DNA of 5,742 nt. Source: a virus (Duplodnaviria; Heunggongvirae; Uroviricota; Caudoviricetes). The translations under genes and the position numbers were made by a program. A model generated the notes under the pieces. The model did no database searches. It was not told the origin of the DNA and saw only the letters and a program-made list of their open reading frames with translations. Where the stretch lies: positions 1-5,742 of the IMG/VR virus record IMGVR_UViG_2671180294_000016. One strand, given 5' to 3'. Positions 1 through 5,742 of this stretch are shown here, piece after piece (within the stretch, counting starts at the first letter, position 1; each line of letters begins with the position of its first letter).

Positions 1-1392
1 ATGGACTTACCTTCTTTACCTTCTCTTTCTTCACTCTTTTCTGCATCTTCAGGTATCAATTGGCGCGATAATCTTTACGACGCTTCATTTCGTGGCGTTC
101 CGTTTTCGGTGGAGAGCGACGAGGGTTCGTTCGGACGCCGCGTTCAGGTCCATGAATACCCAAACCGTGACAAACCGTACACGGAAGATCTCGGGCGTGC
201 CACGCGACGGCTGACGATTAATGCGTATCTCGTTGGTGATGATTACGCAGAGCAGCGCGACAGGCTGATTACAGCGATTGAAACCGCCGGGCCGGGGACG
301 CTGATCCATCCGCAGTTCGGTGAAATGCAGGGCTGTATTGACGGGCAGGTGACCGTTTCTCACTCCGGCACTGAAGGCCGTATGTGCCGGGTTTCATTTC
401 AGTTTGTTGAGAGCGGGGAACTGTCATTTCCGGTCGCCGGAGCTGCAACCGCCAGAAAACTGGAGGAGTCGTCCGTATTCCTGGATGAGTTGATTGAAGA
501 CATGTTCGGCGATTTTGATCTCGCGGGAATACCGGACTTTATTCAGAACGATGTTATTGCCCGGACGACCGATATGCTGGGAACCGTTCAGACAGCTTTC
601 AAAATGGTTAATTCGGCTGTTTCTGCCGGAGCGAGACTACTGCAGGGCGATTTATCCGTCATTCTGATGCCGCCGTCGGTTGCCAGTGATTTTGTGCATA
701 CGTTGCAGGATACCTGGCGGGCCGGAACCCGGCTGGTGGATAACACACAGGATCTGGTGCAGTCCATAACGACAATGTCCGGCATTACGCTGGACCCAGG
801 ACTGGCACCGCGTGCGGTGTGGCCCACAGATTCCGCATCGGTTATCAGGCAAAAACAGCAGACAAACCTTGTGGCTGCTGTCATCCGGACGACGGCAATC
901 AGCGAAGCCACAAGGGCGGTCACTTCACTGCCACAACCCGGAAGCCTGGTGAAAAATCAGCAGGCGGTTGTGGCTGTTGGTGGTTCCACTGAACGTCAGT
1001 CCGATATTATTCACGTTTCTCATCCGGCACTTGACAGCGTGGCAGCCAGCACAGGACAGGATGAGAGAGCGCAACCACCCACGCGGGAAAATCTCACCAT
1101 CATACGCGAATCGCTGAACGCGGCGATTGAACAGGAGCTCAGGCGTACGGCGGATGACAGGCTGTTTTTTCAGCTGACGTCATTACGTACAGAACTGAAC
1201 CGGGATATTCAGGCGCGTCTGGTTCAGACGGAGGAAACCGCAGAGCGAACGCCAGCGGAAGTTCTGCCTGCGCTTGTTCTGGCTGCGTCATGGTACGACG
1301 ATGCGTCCCGTGAAACTGATATCCTGGATCGAAATGCCATCTCTCATCCGGGCTTTGTTCCGGTCAGGGCATTAAGGGTACCCGTCAGATGA
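1..1392 (+). CDS. Phage tail protein, Mu gpN-like DNA circulation protein (contractile-tail/baseplate module)
   Basis: 463-aa ORF starting at ATG at position 1 with TGA at 1390-1392. Residues ~20-110 (WRDNLYDASFRGVPF...HEYPNRDKPYTEDLGR...AYLVGDDYAEQRD...GPGTLIHPQFG) match my recollection of the conserved N-terminal domain of Mu N-type proteins. Stop overlaps the next start in an ATGA motif. The first ~20 codons are CT-rich and low-complexity, so the true start is uncertain and the gene could be 5'-partial. Confidence 0.75.
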   Translation: MDLPSLPSLSSLFSASSGINWRDNLYDASFRGVPFSVESDEGSFGRRVQVHEYPNRDKPYTEDLGRATRRLTINAYLVGDDYAEQRDRLITAIETAGPGTLIHPQFGEMQGCIDGQVTVSHSGTEGRMCRVSFQFVESGELSFPVAGAATARKLEESSVFLDELIEDMFGDFDLAGIPDFIQNDVIARTTDMLGTVQTAFKMVNSAVSAGARLLQGDLSVILMPPSVASDFVHTLQDTWRAGTRLVDNTQDLVQSITTMSGITLDPGLAPRAVWPTDSASVIRQKQQTNLVAAVIRTTAISEATRAVTSLPQPGSLVKNQQAVVAVGGSTERQSDIIHVSHPALDSVAASTGQDERAQPPTRENLTIIRESLNAAIEQELRRTADDRLFFQLTSLRTELNRDIQARLVQTEETAERTPAEVLPALVLAASWYDDASRETDILDRNAISHPGFVPVRALRVPVR

Positions 1393-2465
1393 ATGATACC
1401 GTTTTACTTCGGGTTTCCGGTCGCGAATGGGGCGGCTGGACATCCGTCCGTATCAGTGCGGGCATTAACCGTATTGCCCGGGATTTTAATGTTGCCATTA
1501 CCACCCGCTGGCCCGGAAGCCGGGATTATCAACCCCGGATAAAAAATGGTGAGCTGGTTGAAGTGCTTATCGGGGATGAGCCTGTGCTCACCGGATATGT
1601 GGAGGCACTACCGCTTCGTTATGACGCCAGCAGCGTCAGCATGGGAATTGTCGGGCGAAGCAAAACAGCCGATCTGGTTGACTGCTCTGCTTTGCCACTC
1701 CAGCAGAGCGGAAAAAACCTGCTCAGAATAGTCAGTGAACTGGCTGCGCCATTTGGCATCACCGTTGTTGATGCTGGCGTGCCGCAGACAGCGGTGATTG
1801 ATGCCCAGCCGGAACACGGCGAAACCGTTGCCGATTGTCTTAACCGGTTACTGGGGCAGGTTCAGACGCTGGCTTATGACGATGAATGCGGGCGACTGGT
1901 TCTGGGAAAACCCGGAACAGGTAAAGCGGCGACGGCGCTGGTGCTGGGAGAGAATATTCTTTCCTGTGACACGGAAAGAAGCATCAGAGAGCGGTTTTCT
2001 GAATATCAGGTCAGTGGGCAGCGCCCGGGCAACGACGATGATTTTGGTGAGGCCACCATTGCCGCAATACGTCAGACCATTCAGGACAGTGGCGTGACCC
2101 GTTATCGCCCTTTGTTGATTCAGCAGTCAGGCACAGCAACGACAGCAACCTGTAAGGCCCGTTGTGAATTTGAAGCGCGCCAACGGGCTGCGCTTACCCG
2201 TGAGACAACATATACGGTTCAGGGCTGGCGGCAGGGCAGTGGCGCGTTATGGCGTCCGGGGTTATCTGTCATCGTTTTCGACCCGCTGAATAATTTTGAT
2301 AATGATGAACTGGTGATCGCAGAAGTTACCTATAACCAGGACGACCGGGGCACGACGACTGAATTACGGGTTGGCCCGGCAGATGCTTATCTCCCCGAGC
2401 CTGTTACCGCCAGGAAGAAAAAAATGTTGAGGAGGATTTCTGATGAACGGGTTTTCTCTTCGTAA
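1389..2465 (+). CDS. Phage tail/baseplate hub protein, Mu gpP-like (late control D family)
   Basis: 358-aa ORF; ATG at 1389 overlaps the upstream stop by 4 bp (translational coupling). Its position between the N-like and V-like genes and its size fit the Mu-type baseplate order N-P-Q(gp45)-gp46-gp47. Family assignment is by position and general similarity, not by a run alignment. Confidence 0.7.
   Translation: MNDTVLLRVSGREWGGWTSVRISAGINRIARDFNVAITTRWPGSRDYQPRIKNGELVEVLIGDEPVLTGYVEALPLRYDASSVSMGIVGRSKTADLVDCSALPLQQSGKNLLRIVSELAAPFGITVVDAGVPQTAVIDAQPEHGETVADCLNRLLGQVQTLAYDDECGRLVLGKPGTGKAATALVLGENILSCDTERSIRERFSEYQVSGQRPGNDDDFGEATIAAIRQTIQDSGVTRYRPLLIQQSGTATTATCKARCEFEARQRAALTRETTYTVQGWRQGSGALWRPGLSVIVFDPLNNFDNDELVIAEVTYNQDDRGTTTELRVGPADAYLPEPVTARKKKMLRRISDERVFSS
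2429..2435 (+). promoter_or_regulatory. Shine-Dalgarno sequence (GAGGAGG) for the gp45-like gene
   Basis: GAGGAGG lies 7 nt upstream of the ATG at 2443, inside the 3' end of the preceding ORF. This supports 2443 as the real start and an internal re-initiation site. Confidence 0.6.
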
Positions 2466-2976
2466 TCTGATTTCCCGGGCTGTCATCACGGCGGTGGATT
2501 CCGCCAGAAAGTGTCAGTCTGTAGGGTTGAAAATGATAGCCGGAGATCAGAAACAACACGTTGAGCACCTTGAACCTTATGGTTTTACATCTGCCGCACA
2601 GAACGGTGCTGAGGGCGTTGCTTTATTTCCGGCGGGCGATCGTTCTCATGGTGTGGTTGTGGTCGTGGCTGACAGACGTTACCGGCTGAAAGGACTGAAA
2701 CGTGGGGAAGTGGCGCTTTATGACGATCTGGGACAGTCCGTTGTCCTGACCCGTTCCGGTATTGTGGTGGACGGGGCCGGGAAGGCCATAATTTTTAAAA
2801 ACGCGCCTAAAGCGCGCTTTGAAATGCCAGTCGAATCCACCGCCGATATTACTGACAATTGCGACAGTGGCGGACTCAGCATGCAGCAAATGCGGCAGGC
2901 CTACAATGCCCACAAACATACCGAAAATGGTGATGGTGGCGGGATCACTGACACGCCGGATCAACCGATGGGCTGA
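2443..2976 (+). CDS. Baseplate assembly protein V-like / Mu gp45-like baseplate spike
   Basis: 177-aa ORF with a strong SD and a 23-bp overlap with the upstream gene. Motifs EPYGFTSAAQNGAEGVALFPAGDRSHGVVVVVADRRYR...GEVALYD resemble the gpV/gp45 spike family as I recall it. Confidence 0.75.
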   Translation: MNGFSLRNLISRAVITAVDSARKCQSVGLKMIAGDQKQHVEHLEPYGFTSAAQNGAEGVALFPAGDRSHGVVVVVADRRYRLKGLKRGEVALYDDLGQSVVLTRSGIVVDGAGKAIIFKNAPKARFEMPVESTADITDNCDSGGLSMQQMRQAYNAHKHTENGDGGGITDTPDQPMG

Positions 2977-2981
2977 AAATC

Positions 2982-3392
2982 ATGATGATTAATGTTAACG
3001 GGCGACCCGTGTCGACCGGGGCTTCGATCGACCTTCTGACGCGTGCTGTGATTATTTCGCTTTTTACATGGCGGCGTGCCGGGCGTGATGATGCACCACG
3101 GATATTTGGATGGTGGGGGGATACCTGGCCTGCGGTTCAGAATGATCGCACGGGGTCGCGTTTGTATCTGTTGCGACGCAGCAAGCTGACAAATAAAACC
3201 CCGCAGCTTGCCAGAGATTATGTCCGTGAGGCGCTGGCGTGGATGGTGGAGGATGGTGTTGCTTCCCGTCTTGATATTAACGCTGTCCGGACCGGGACAG
3301 ACTCGCTGGCACTTGCCATTACCATTTACCAGCGTGACGGCAATATTCACAACATTATTTTTGATGATATCTGGAGTGAACTGAATGGCTGA
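2982..3392 (+). CDS. Mu gp46-family baseplate protein
   Basis: 136-aa ORF starting at ATG 2982 (or 2985), 5 bp after the upstream stop. Its size and position between the V-like and J-like genes fit the GP46 family. The SD is weak. Confidence 0.65.
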   Translation: MMINVNGRPVSTGASIDLLTRAVIISLFTWRRAGRDDAPRIFGWWGDTWPAVQNDRTGSRLYLLRRSKLTNKTPQLARDYVREALAWMVEDGVASRLDINAVRTGTDSLALAITIYQRDGNIHNIIFDDIWSELNG

Positions 3393-3978
3393 CAGTCAGT
3401 TTTATCGCCCCGGCCTCCCGCAACTTATTTCTATGATCCGGAGCGATTTATTAACCCGCTTTGAGCAGGATACGCTGCTTCGTCGTATGGATGCGGAAGT
3501 GTATGCCCGTGTACAGGCTGCAGCCGTACACACGTTGTACGGGTATATCGATTATCTTGCCAGAAATCTGTTACCGGACGTGTGTGATGAAGACTGGCTG
3601 TACCGGCACGCCAGAATCAAACGCTGCCCGCGAAAAGAAGCGGTGGCAGCCCGGGGATTTGTGCGCTGGGATGGCGTAGAGGGGACGCCGGTATTGCCAG
3701 CGGGAACGCAGATCCAGCGTGATAATCAGGTGACCTTTACCACGACGGCGACGGTGACCGCAGCCGATGGTCTTCTCCGGGTGCCTGTTGTGGCAGACGA
3801 ACCGGGATCGGCGGGGAATACGGATGATGGTATTGCCATGCAACTGGGAACACCCGTCAGTGGTCTGCCGTCCACAGGGTACGCTGACACCATTACAGAC
3901 GGTGAAGATATTGAAAATCTGGAAATATGGCGTGCCCGCGTTATGGAACGTTATTACTACATTCCACAGGGGGGCGCA
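3385..3978 (+). pseudogene. Baseplate J-like (Mu gp47-like) gene, 3'-truncated by IS1 insertion
   Basis: ATG at 3385 overlaps the upstream stop by 8 bp, with GGAGTG 6 nt upstream. The N-terminal motif RRMDAEVYARVQAAAVHTLYGYIDYLARNLLPD is typical of baseplate J-like proteins. Native coding stops at 3978, about 198 codons, against roughly 350 expected. The 224-aa ORF in the track (to 4059) gets its last ~27 residues from read-through into IS1. Confidence 0.75.
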
Positions 3979-4324
3979 GGTAATGACTCCAACTTATTGA
4001 TAGTGTTTTATGTTCAGATAATGCCCGATGACTTTGTCATGCAGCTCCACCGATTTTGAGAACGACAGCGACTTCCGTCCCAGCCGTGCCAGGTGCTGCC
4101 TCAGATTCAGGTTATGCCGCTCAATTCGCTGCGTATATCGCTTGCTGATTACGTGCAGCTTTCCCTTCAGGCGGGATTCATACAGCGGCCAGCCATCCGT
4201 CATCCATATCACCACGTCAAAGGGTGACAGCAGGCTCATAAGACGCCCCAGCGTCGCCATAGTGCGTTCACCGAATACGTGCGCAACAACCGTCTTCCGG
4301 AGACTGTCATACGCGTAAAACAGC
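3979..4324 (-). mobile_element. IS1 insertion sequence, partial (terminal inverted repeat through ~346 bp, then gap)
   Basis: 3979-4001 GGTAATGACTCCAACTTATTGAT is the IS1 terminal inverted repeat. The following sequence matches the IS1 interior as I recall it and encodes the InsB C-terminus on the minus strand. The element continues into the N-run, so its other end is not visible. Confidence 0.95.
3994..4324 (-). CDS. insB: IS1 transposase InsB, C-terminal fragment (5' part lost in gap)
   Basis: Minus-strand translation ...[109 protein letters not shown] matches the InsB C-terminus; stop is the reverse complement of 3994-3996. The 133-aa ORF in the track (3994..4395) is a chimera spanning the N-gap. 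Confidence 0.9.
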
Positions 4325-4335
4325 NNNNNNNNNNN
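4325..4335. other. Assembly gap (11 N) joining IS1 interior to integrase interior
   Basis: A literal run of 11 n. The left flank is internal IS1 sequence and the right flank is mid-gene integrase sequence, so an unknown amount of DNA is missing. Confidence 0.98.
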
Positions 4336-4336
4336 G

Positions 4337-5008
4337 AAAAACACAATGGCAGGATCAATGCGTTCTGTGTTGTCTGATATGTTTCGCGAGGCCATTGTTG
4401 AAGGACGTATATCTCAAAATCCAGTCACGCCAACAAGAGCACCGAAAATAGTAGTTACAAGAGAACGACTGAAACTAAAGATATACAACTGCATCAGGGA
4501 GGCAGCAGATCAACTTCCGGCATGGTTCCCATTAGCTATGGATTTAGCCCTTGTAACAGGACAACGTCGCGAAGACATAACGAATATGCGGTTCAGTGAT
4601 ATTTATGATGATCGTCTCCACGTCAGGCAAATTAAGACAGGAATGATGATTGCTATCCCCCTGTCACTCAGCCTTCCTGTCGCTGGTCTACGGCTTGGTA
4701 CAGTAGTTGAACGATGCCGCCTGGTAAGCCGGGGAGATTATCTAATCAGTGCCGGGATTAGAAAAAACAGCCCTGACGGCAGCATTCACCCGGATGGCCT
4801 GACAAAAAAATTTGTCGCAGCCAGAAAATTCACAGGTATCCAGTTCAGTGAAAACCCACCAACTTTTCACGAGATCAGAAGCCTGGCTGGACGATTGTAC
4901 AAAGAAACATGTGGAGAAGAATTTGCTCAGCGTCTACTTGGCCACACATCGGAGAAGACAACAAAAATGTATCTTGATGAGAGAGAAAAAACGTACTTAC
5001 TGCTCTGA
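4337..5008 (+). CDS. int: Tyrosine recombinase, lambda Int family, 5'-truncated at the gap (C-terminal catalytic domain)
   Basis: Frame is open from the first base after the gap. The translation aligns from memory with lambda Int from about residue 160 to the C-terminus ([16 protein letters not shown] / AIP / [14 protein letters not shown] / [13 protein letters not shown]). The catalytic positions R, K, H-x-x-R, H and Y are all present. TGA stop at 5006-5008. The ATG at 4346 is probably not the real start. Confidence 0.9.
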
Positions 5009-5084
5009 TTTTAACGTAAATGGATTGTTAAATGTATTTTGGTTGTGATATAACCAAAAAGACCGGAATACAGAAATTCGAGTA

Positions 5085-5104
5085 AATTTCGGGGAATTTC
5101 GGGG
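5085..5104 (+). repeat. Perfect tandem direct repeat AATTTCGGGG x2 between int and the sRNA 3' end
   Basis: 5085-5094 and 5095-5104 are identical decamers. The position between the int stop and the presumptive att core makes them candidate arm-type recombinase binding sites, which is inference only. Confidence 0.45.
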
Positions 5105-5114
5105 GAGACATTTG

Positions 5115-5127
5115 CAACTAATTGATT
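5115..5127 (-). promoter_or_regulatory. IHF consensus-like site (WATCAANNNNTTR) in the att-proximal spacer
   Basis: The reverse complement of 5115-5127 is AATCAATTAGTTG, matching WATCAANNNNTTR. It sits in AT-rich DNA between int and the SdsR 3' end. A chance match is plausible. Confidence 0.3.
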
Positions 5128-5139
5128 TCAAATGCAATT

Positions 5140-5174
5140 AAAAAAAGACCGAATACGATTCCTGTATTCGGTCC
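5140..5174 (-). terminator. Intrinsic terminator of SdsR (hairpin GACCGAATAC...GTATTCGGTC plus U-run)
   Basis: A 10-bp perfect stem at 5148-5157 / 5165-5174 with a 7-nt loop, followed on the minus strand by 7 T (plus-strand A-run 5140-5146). Confidence 0.8.
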
Positions 5175-5242
5175 AGGGAAATGGCTCTTGGGAGAGAGCC
5201 GTGCGCTAAAAGTTGGCATTAATGCAGGCTTAGTTGCCTTGC
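5140..5242 (-). ncRNA. sdsR: Small RNA SdsR (RyeB)
   Basis: The minus strand reads GCAAGGCAACTAAGCCTGCATTAATGCCAACTTTTAGCGCACGGCTCTCTCCCAAGAGCCATTTCCCTGGACCGAATACAGGAATCGTATTCGGTC followed by a T-run. This matches the enterobacterial SdsR/RyeB sequence as I recall it, including the terminal hairpin. Exact ends are approximate. Confidence 0.85.
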
Positions 5243-5248
5243 CCTTTA

Positions 5249-5255
5249 AGAATAG
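5249..5255 (-). promoter_or_regulatory. Candidate sigma-S-type -10 element (C-TATTCT) for sdsR
   Basis: On the minus strand, CTATTCT ends 6 nt upstream of the presumed SdsR 5' end (G at 5242), with C at -13. This fits the sigma-S extended -10 pattern and the known RpoS dependence of SdsR. No clear -35 was examined. Confidence 0.45.
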
Positions 5256-5329
5256 ATGACGACGCCAGGTTTTCCAGTTTGCGTGCAAAATGGTCAATAA
5301 AAAGCGCGGTGGTCATCAGCTTAAATGTT

Positions 5330-5371
5330 AAAAACCGCCCGTTCTGGTGAAAGAACTGAGGCGGTTTTTTT
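5330..5371. terminator. Bidirectional intrinsic terminator between ryeA/sdsR and yebY
   Basis: A GC-rich stem (CCGCC..GTTC / GAAC..GGCGG) at about 5335-5364 is flanked by A5 upstream and T7 downstream, so it can terminate on both strands. It lies 30 bp past the yebY stop on the minus strand. Confidence 0.8.
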
Positions 5372-5400
5372 ATTGGAAATCAAAAGGCTATTTTAGGTAA

Positions 5401-5742
5401 TTAACAGAGTTTTTCAGCTCGTTCTATAAACGGTGCCAGACTCATTTTTTCGCCGGGATTGTTAGGATCATCAATCTGAATCACCGAAATGGGTTGGGCA
5501 TTGGTCTTCCCACTGGCAACTTCCTTTTGTGCGATATCGTTTAAAGGATACTGCACGAGGGTACTCGGATTAATAACATACAAAGCATTACCCGGTCGGC
5601 AAGTCAGCATCACCTCTTCGCGATTAAACGCCCATTTGTCTTTACCCACTTCAAAACGACTGACGGTAATCACCTGCGGTGCAGCCAGCGCCGCTGCAGA
5701 ACTGGTGAGTAACAGAAACGCCAGAATACTTTTTTTCATCAT
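5401..5742 (-). CDS. yebY: YebY, DUF2511-family secreted/periplasmic protein
   Basis: 113-aa minus-strand [27 protein letters not shown]..., with a typical Sec signal peptide and an A-x-A cleavage motif. It matches E. coli YebY as I recall it, the gene that flanks ryeA/sdsR in K-12. The start codon is at the window edge and the RBS lies outside the window. Confidence 0.85.

Follow-up and report, generated by a model that had tools for sequence, protein, structure and literature searches.

A probable lambda-type attachment-site arm at the SdsR terminator, beside the truncated integrase gene of a decayed Escherichia coli prophage

In the attP site of phage lambda, the P' arm runs from the 3' end of int through three contiguous direct arm-type repeats and an integration host factor (IHF) site to a core of inverted half-sites arranged around a 7-bp overlap. 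The window analysed here, a stretch of 5,742 nucleotides (nt) comprising positions 1 to 5,742 of the IMG/VR virus record IMGVR_UViG_2671180294_000016, carries a segment of the same layout next to a truncated tyrosine integrase gene. Comparison with related sites makes it probable (about 0.8) that this segment, 5056-5173, represents the integrase-proximal arm and the core, in the form of an attL junction, of a lambda-family attachment site for which the terminator hairpin of the small RNA SdsR serves as core. The window itself corresponds to the sdsR/ryeA locus of E. coli; a decayed prophage occupies the left side.

Phages are already known to integrate at the terminator of sdsR, also called ryeB (Balbontin et al. 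2008, J Bacteriol 190:4075, cited by PMC7380047 and PMC3333887). For PhiW104 and other Salmonella prophages, the att site corresponds to the last 23 bp of ryeB, and this 23-bp core is all that is mentioned in the passages of PMC7380047 and PMC3333887 in which Balbontin et al. 2008 is cited. Literature searches on arm sites at sdsR/ryeB, or on a core-like site within an attachment-site arm, returned nothing specific.

Probable core and attL junction at the SdsR terminator

The segment can be divided into the following elements, named by analogy with lambda where a counterpart exists.

5056-5071, plus strand: core-like element AAAAAGACCGGAATAC, read as the integrase-proximal core half-site and its A-tract repeated in direct orientation, with one G inserted; it abuts the outermost arm-type repeat.
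5074-5083, plus strand: putative arm-type repeat 3 (P'3 by lambda analogy), AAATTCGAGT, a degenerate unit with its TTCG at -70 from the core.
5085-5094, plus strand: putative arm-type repeat 2 (P'2 by lambda analogy), AATTTCGGGG, tandem copy.
5095-5104, plus strand: putative arm-type repeat 1 (P'1 by lambda analogy, the closest to the core), AATTTCGGGG, tandem copy.
5115-5127, minus strand: putative IHF site (H' by lambda analogy), AATCAATTAGTTG, that is WATCAANNNNTTR, an exact match to the consensus.
5140-5156, plus strand: phage-derived A-tract and integrase-proximal core half-site GACCGAATAC (5147-5156), delimited by comparison of attL, attB and attP.
5157-5163, no strand assigned: presumed 7-bp overlap for strand exchange, GATTCCT, coinciding with the SdsR terminator loop; it is identified by attP/attB identity and by the inverted half-sites on either side.
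5164-5173, plus strand: bacterial core half-site GTATTCGGTC, the same as in K-12 attB; its minus strand is the 5' stem of the SdsR terminator.

The junction was delimited by a three-way comparison of attP from phage pPE4 (PP818812, locus L001), attB from the empty K-12 site and attL from the window. Identity between attP and attB is confined to ACGATTCCTGT (5155-5165). Perfect inverted half-sites of 10 bp (5147-5156 and 5164-5173) flank the 7-nt loop; the distal half-site of the window is that of K-12 attB, unlike the distal half-site of attP, GTTTTCGTCA. Position 5154 is of the phage type (T, where K-12 has C) and position 5166 of the host type, which places the crossover in or next to the loop GATTCCT. 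By analogy with lambda, the strands would be cleaved around this heptamer. The L001 phage (PP818812.1) is recorded as Actinobacillus phage vB_Apl-pPE4; its attP is of the enterobacterial sdsR-terminator type, its integrase shares 97.5% identity with the E. coli enzyme, and the stated Actinobacillus host looks doubtful.

Integration has left phage sequence within both small RNA genes. Read on the minus strand, 5140-5156 gives the 3' stem and the U-tail of the SdsR terminator, and it is phage-derived when set against positions 4105-4121 of L004. The T at 5154 converts a U.G wobble of K-12 to a Watson-Crick pair. On the opposite strand, the native ryeA promoter and the first 45 or so nt of ryeA have been replaced by phage arm DNA. 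Lysogeny at the sdsR site lowers ryeA expression and raises that of ryeB, according to the relevant passage of PMC7380047.

Members of the integrase family have an arm-binding, a core-binding and a catalytic domain, of which the copy in the window keeps the catalytic domain alone. The attachment site in the window is a non-functional relic, since its integrase has lost the arm-binding domain, and for activity it would need a related integrase provided in trans.

Conserved repeats of probable arm type and the integrase N-terminal domain

The comparison covered the attP sites of three phages, the empty site of K-12 and, from Enterobacterales, 252 related att regions (79 of them non-redundant) with a core of the sdsR type and three repeats. 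The related loci were drawn from viral contigs, species-representative genomes and phage records. They cover Escherichia, Serratia, Yersinia, Pectobacterium, Kluyvera and Pantoea, with integrase identities ranging from 47% to 100%. Among the matches listed by a loose scan of viral contigs for a three-TTCG pattern most were random, and these were filtered by hand.

The order of elements is common to all sites: the int stop codon, a copy of a core half-site, three repeats of about 10 bp of the form TTCGnnn, an IHF consensus, and the sdsR terminator as core. The TTCG motifs of the three repeats are found at -69, -58 and -48 (±1) relative to the first base of the core half-site in the 252 regions, and the core-like copy at -84 or -85 from the core in nearly all relatives. 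A sequence-only reading of the window had proposed an att-arm architecture in which these decamers would be recombinase-binding sites of the arm type. Both proposals gain from the comparison. The elements recur in order and at fixed distances in free phage attP and in the 252 att regions; the repeats, the core-like copy and IHF consensus sites are all present in the attP regions of related phages; and the repeats are conserved, rather than absent, in other prophages at sdsR. The perfect tandem of AATTTCGGGG noted in the same reading at 5085-5104 is exact, and the window contains no further exact copy of it.

Variation in repeat number was also encountered. Decayed relics with two repeats (L135, L137, L138, L140, L141 and L144) have the core-like copy shifted inward by one repeat length, and one relic (L336) has five repeats, which suggests slippage of repeat units. 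Two-prophage tandems occur at sdsR in Serratia montpellierensis (L086/L094) and Serratia aquatilis (L116/L126); their members lie about 41-55 kb apart and differ in arm-repeat class, and hybrid attP-like junctions are found between them.

The repeats are not confined to the integrase side. In loci of attP form, the three integrase-side repeats lie at -82, -71 and -61 from the centre of the overlap, and the far (P) arm carries the same type of repeat in the same orientation at +123, (+133) and +144. The P-arm units in attP are TTTTTCGAGT at +123 and AATTTCGGGA at +144. The far arm of the E. coli phage holds TTCGAGT and TTCGGGA, and that of L140 holds three copies of TTCGGAC. The triplet following TTCG falls into 15 classes among the phages; within a single phage it is shared by two or more of the three copies at 69 of the 79 non-redundant sites.

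Full-length integrase relatives of the window fragment have 358 amino acids (aa) and the domains PF09003, PF22022 and PF00589, and an excisionase gene precedes the integrase gene. The full-length protein aligns with lambda Int structures over residues 10-348 (E = 6.5e-73); its identity is 39% with lambda Int and 41.5% with HK022 Int. Within its N-terminal domain, the third residue after the motif NLT[Y/F]R (integrase residues about 17-22 in L003 and its relatives) tracks the arm triplet; in the E. coli integrase this residue is D20. GAC is found with R in 21 of 25 cases, GGG with D or E in 15 of 16, TGN with Y in all 9 and AGT with G in 9 of 13; further pairs are D or E with AGG, S with GAA or GAG, Q or V with ATA, and K with GGA. 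There are exceptions, such as KASKS or RYYKS with GAC. A natural pair of Serratia integrases illustrates the correspondence: their N-terminal domains are near-identical except for a five-residue segment, which reads RNRNA in the phage with GAC repeats and SKGKS in the phage with AGT repeats.

The tracking residue aligns with about N21 of lambda Int, which we take, from published structures of the lambda N-terminal domain, to sit in the part of the domain that contacts arm DNA. The pairing of a single N-terminal residue with a triplet looks like a natural specificity code, and one residue of the arm-binding domain could set the triplet (R for GAC, Y for TGN, D for GGG or AGG, G for AGT, S for GAA or GAG). 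Neither this correspondence nor the additional copy of a core half-site is described in the searchable literature. The assignment of the decamers as predicted binding sites of the arm type is supported by their fixed copies on both attP arms, by the concerted change of their triplets, by the tracking of triplet and residue, and by the homology of the integrase to lambda Int.

The IHF-like motif of the sequence-only reading proved to be an exact match to the consensus WATCAANNNNTTR on the minus strand. A strict match to WATCARNNNNTTR between the last repeat and the core is found in 35 of the 79 non-redundant relatives, as against 0.7% of composition-matched random 41-mers. This is an enrichment of about 60-fold, and the matches occupy two fixed positions only: plus strand at -19 in phages of the Serratia/Yersinia type and minus strand at about -32 in those of the Escherichia/Salmonella type. 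The window carries the minus-strand version. Its position between arm-type sites and core, together with the match to the consensus, makes 5115-5127 a putative IHF site.

By analogy with lambda, the two 10-bp halves of the terminator stem would be the core-type integrase sites and the 7-nt loop the overlap for strand exchange. The three contiguous arm-type sites (AATTTCGGGG twice and AAATTCGAGT) would be held by the N-terminal domain of the integrase, and an IHF-induced bend between arm and core would allow the arm-bound protomers to bring their catalytic domains to the core half-sites.

A core-like copy beside the outermost repeat

The sequence-only reading had described 5061-5080 as a partial inverted copy of the SdsR 3' hairpin. 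The resemblance is genuine and exceeds chance: the stretch is present as GACCGGAATACAGAAATTCG, and its alignment with the minus-strand SdsR sequence GACCGAATACAGGAATCG has 17 matches, one mismatch and two one-base gaps. The corresponding reverse-complement range is 5156-5173 instead of 5157-5174, and the tail of the supposed hairpin copy is the third, degenerate repeat AAATTCGAGT. A local alignment of the arm zone with the core zone scores 13.5, a value reached in 3 of 5000 shuffles. A repeat search finds a direct relation between 5056-5071 (AAAAAGACCGGAATAC) and 5141-5156 (AAAAAAGACCGAATAC), equal in quality to the inverted relation, in which 5066-5077 and 5158-5169 are complementary at 11 of 12 positions. 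The two relations coexist because the halves of the 10-bp terminator stem (5147-5156 and 5164-5173) form a perfect palindrome.

A direct repeat of the integrase-proximal half-site is the favoured description of the copy, because the A-tract on the left is kept at the copy as it is at the core, because GACCGAATAC in attP is the integrase-proximal half-site alone (the distal one being GTTTTCGTCA), and because the sequence on the right side of the copy, already part of repeat 3, varies freely. The A/T-rich flank of this outermost repeat accounts for the loop matches that had suggested an inverted copy. The core-type-like element of the sequence-only reading thus stands as a feature conserved in the family, and is better read as a direct half-site repeat with its A-tract than as an inverted hairpin copy. 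In one locus, L011 (IMGVR_UViG_2728369554_000022), copy and core act as direct repeats. A clean 85-bp deletion, equivalent to 5056-5140 of the window, extends from the core-like copy to the core and takes out all three arm repeats and the IHF site; the sdsR terminator is left intact.

Over 78 non-redundant sites, the copy has the consensus (A)AAGACCG(A/G)ATA(T/C) and a mean identity of 8.4 of 10 positions to the half-site of its own phage. The spacer beside it is saturated with changes, and the copy itself is still conserved. Phage genomes in free or circular form contain it (pPE4, L001; ZC-S1_prp, L002; Tbat2_3, L152), and both copy and decamers are missing from the empty K-12 site. In L096, which is integrated upstream of katG in Serratia rubidaea, the core half-site (AAAAAGTATACCTATC) and the arm copy (AAAAAGTAACTATC) have both changed. 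The alignment of this pair scores 11, reached in 12 of 5000 shuffles, and the cross-class pairs of L096 score 6-7. It is suggestive, from this locus, that the copy follows the core when the attachment site changes. A 14-base scan for the L096 core gave random matches only, and viral contigs encoding relatives of the L096 integrase break off at the int stop codon, before any att region.

It seems possible, then, that the copy at 5056-5071 would serve as an additional docking site of low specificity for the C-terminal part of an integrase protomer beside P'3. Integrase docked there might lock the arm complex in place or nucleate it, or might adjust how integration and excision are balanced. That the copy acts as such a site, stabilising or regulating the arm complex, is the best guess we can offer for its role, although as a tentative proposal it falls well short of being probable. 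The wider notion, that sdsR-targeting relatives of lambda Int possess a seventh recognition element, absent in lambda, where the core-binding and catalytic part would dock and which would change with the core, is no more probable.

Several points weigh against our interpretation of the segment, and most of them concern the copy. The conservation figures, both the identity to the half-site and the information content (0.9-2.0 bits per position in the copy, about 0.1 in the spacer that follows the repeats), are somewhat inflated at the anchored positions (the anchors being TTCG and the best match to GACCGAATA). The joint change of copy and core rests on a single lineage, L096, for which the chance estimate becomes about 0.06 once the positions shared with the canonical site are discounted. 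Single-base variants of the core are mostly not mirrored in the copy: they are mirrored in L097, L485 and L494, and not in L168, L177, L208, L102, L106, L113, L186 and L302. Relatives of the Pantoea type at a third attB (L119, L120, L513 and L515) show an arm-core resemblance that is AT-rich and non-significant. Lambda is not known to have a core-like element of this kind, so that its action is without precedent. Finally, the searchable literature gave no binding, footprint or recombination data for the sdsR-targeting integrase family. Single-base covariation of the core half-site with the arm copy, positive in L097 at first, was inconsistent in further loci and was rejected.

Other explanations of the copy can be weighed on the same data. 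It might act as RNA, either by forming a hairpin or terminator with the TTCG repeats in the int 3' untranslated region or, being complementary to the last 14 or so nt of SdsR, by affecting int mRNA or read-through. The copy does begin at the int stop codon, or a few bases from it, in most relatives, and predicted folds join CCGAA(U) of the copy to (A)UUCGG of a repeat (plus strand, z = -1.8 to -2.4). However, the pairing is confined to the invariant CGAA/TTCG tetramer; the variable repeat positions are pairable in 6-58% of 78 non-redundant sequences, with no compensatory change. Moreover, shuffled sequences fold as well as the minus strand does (z = -0.6), and the single terminator-like site within 4950-5420 is the true sdsR terminator (5174-5146). 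A role at the RNA level therefore appears unlikely. A Rho-independent terminator or second SdsR hairpin at the copy was considered separately and rejected: the second half of the stem is missing, the folds are weak and no terminator was called. It is more improbable that the copy is a fourth arm-type site in inverted orientation, even though its reverse complement, ATATTCGGTC, fits WWWTTCGNNN, its commonest variant, GACCGAATAT, holds a TTCG flanked by A/T and a triplet when reverse-complemented, and in phages of the GAC type it differs from a true repeat by only 1-2 bases. True repeats are invariant for TTCG (partly owing to the criterion by which they were collected), whereas the copy has TCCG, CTCG, TACG, TGCG or TCCT, with an information content of 0.87 at its variable A. 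The 'triplet' of the copy is fixed as GTC while true repeats switch among 15 classes, and the copy of L096 lacks TTCG although its three repeats retain it.

The sequence-only reading had offered, as an alternative, the scar of an earlier integration at the same hotspot, or a secondary core left by it. The sdsR/ryeB site is indeed a hotspot with repeated insertions and remnants, as far as the passages of PMC7380047 and PMC3333887 citing Balbontin et al. 2008 describe it, and tandem prophages occur there in Serratia (L086/L094 and L116/L126). This alternative is nonetheless rejected as extremely improbable: the copy is carried, with the decamers, inside the phage-borne arm of L001, L002 and L152, and K-12 attB is without it. 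Its position relative to the int stop codon and the repeats is fixed even at 47% integrase identity. Furthermore, the next 7 bp read AGAAATT as against the overlap GATTCCT, which leaves no usable core, and the bases that follow vary freely in relatives. The copy could also be without function, an old duplication whose similarity to the core is maintained when the direct repeats occasionally recombine or undergo gene conversion. The two copies do recombine, as the 85-bp deletion exactly between them in L011 illustrates, and the joint change in L096 could have arisen by conversion instead of selection. Yet repeats of 13-16 bp are poor substrates for conversion, and when direct repeats recombine the arm is lost, as seen in L011, and not homogenised. 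Differences between copy and core (a final T versus C; the inserted G of the E. coli type) are stable within clades, and conservation, which is gone entirely from the adjacent spacer, is retained in the copy at 0.9-2 bits per position. A neutral duplication is accordingly a poor prospect, and a direct half-site repeat carried by the phage arm remains our preferred description of the copy.

The surrounding locus and comparison with known systems

The remaining features of the window are these.

Within 1-4059: Mu/phiP27-like DNA-circularisation and baseplate genes (gpP, gp45, gp46).
3385-4059: truncated baseplate J gene.
About 3980-4345, minus strand (transposase fragment): partial insertion sequence IS1.
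4346-5008, plus strand: truncated tyrosine integrase gene from the list of open reading frames, encoding the C-terminal 220 aa (catalytic domain), with PF00589 as the sole domain found.
5037-5059, no strand assigned: inverted repeat TTTTGGTT-GTGATAT-AACCAAAA, with arms at 5037-5044 and 5052-5059 (RNA fold z = -2.35).
5239-5140, minus strand: SdsR, by Rfam match.
5136-5280, plus strand: RyeA/SraC, by Rfam match.
5401-5742: yebY, to the right of the core.

The prophage part, 1-4345, is a mosaic relic in which the partial IS1 links baseplate genes to the lambda-family integrase fragment. IS1 homology adjoins the integrase gene; the IS1 remnant cut this gene, so that the C-terminal 220 aa alone remain, and the N-terminal arm-binding and core-binding domains have been lost upstream of the remnant. 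The junction of integrase, spacer and sdsR is present in 228 of 5426 complete E. coli genomes (about 4%), and the junction of baseplate genes, IS1 and truncated int seen in the window occurs in none of the complete RefSeq E. coli genomes. An insert of about 50 bp (5009-5059) separates the int stop codon from the core-like copy in the Escherichia/Salmonella/Citrobacter-type subfamily only; in phages of the Serratia/Yersinia type, the int stop codon directly abuts the copy. The insert carries the conserved motifs ATGTTAAA and TGTGRTATAAC, the latter kept in relatives of the Escherichia/Salmonella/Citrobacter type and missing from those of the Serratia/Yersinia type. A promoter scan called nothing in the insert (5009-5059), and a sigma-70 promoter in the TGTGATATAAC motif, directed into ryeA, was dropped as a candidate on the same ground. 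An Rfam match to the Listeria RNA rliE at 5318-5423 was judged spurious (25.8 bits against a gathering score of 90); it covers the hairpin terminator that separates ryeA from yebY.

Set beside what is known, the site is a lambda-type arm of an uncharacterised and widespread integrase family at an already known attachment site. The family also occurs in many other Enterobacterales, and the present findings chiefly supply the anatomy of its att site. As far as they are described in the sources at hand, prophages of the PhiW104 type likewise use the SdsR terminator, which is internal to ryeA, displace the 5' part of ryeA with its promoter and rebuild the terminator from phage sequence; they are found in Salmonella, whereas the window is from E. 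coli and holds a truncated relic prophage. Strain differences in the SdsR terminator and in the region upstream of ryeA can be explained as phage-derived and as lasting past the decay of the prophage.

The closest characterised integrase in the phage collection is HK022 Int, a heterobivalent enzyme of the lambda type with 41.5% identity over 97% of the length. HK022 has a different core and attB and is not known to have TTCG repeats; it shares the arm-type sites of lambda. The natural series of matched integrase and arm-site specificities in the sdsR family could guide the engineering of orthogonal lambda-type integrases.

The likeness to lambda extends beyond the order of elements on the P' arm to an integrase homologous over its full length, with PF09003, and to further arm-type sites on the far arm. 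The differences are of several kinds. The arm-type sequence is WWWTTCGnnn in the sdsR family, unlike the lambda consensus C/AAGTCACTAT; the far arm of the family has up to three sites, at +123, +133 and +144; the core is the terminator hairpin of a small RNA, with perfect 10-bp half-sites; and the IHF site shifts in strand and position between subfamilies. In the sdsR family, moreover, a copy of a core half-site lies between the int stop codon and P'3, whereas P'3 of lambda overlaps the int stop codon, and we know of no core half-site copy described there. This additional half-site lies outside the lambda paradigm and, if functional, would be a new control element in a well-studied recombination machine.

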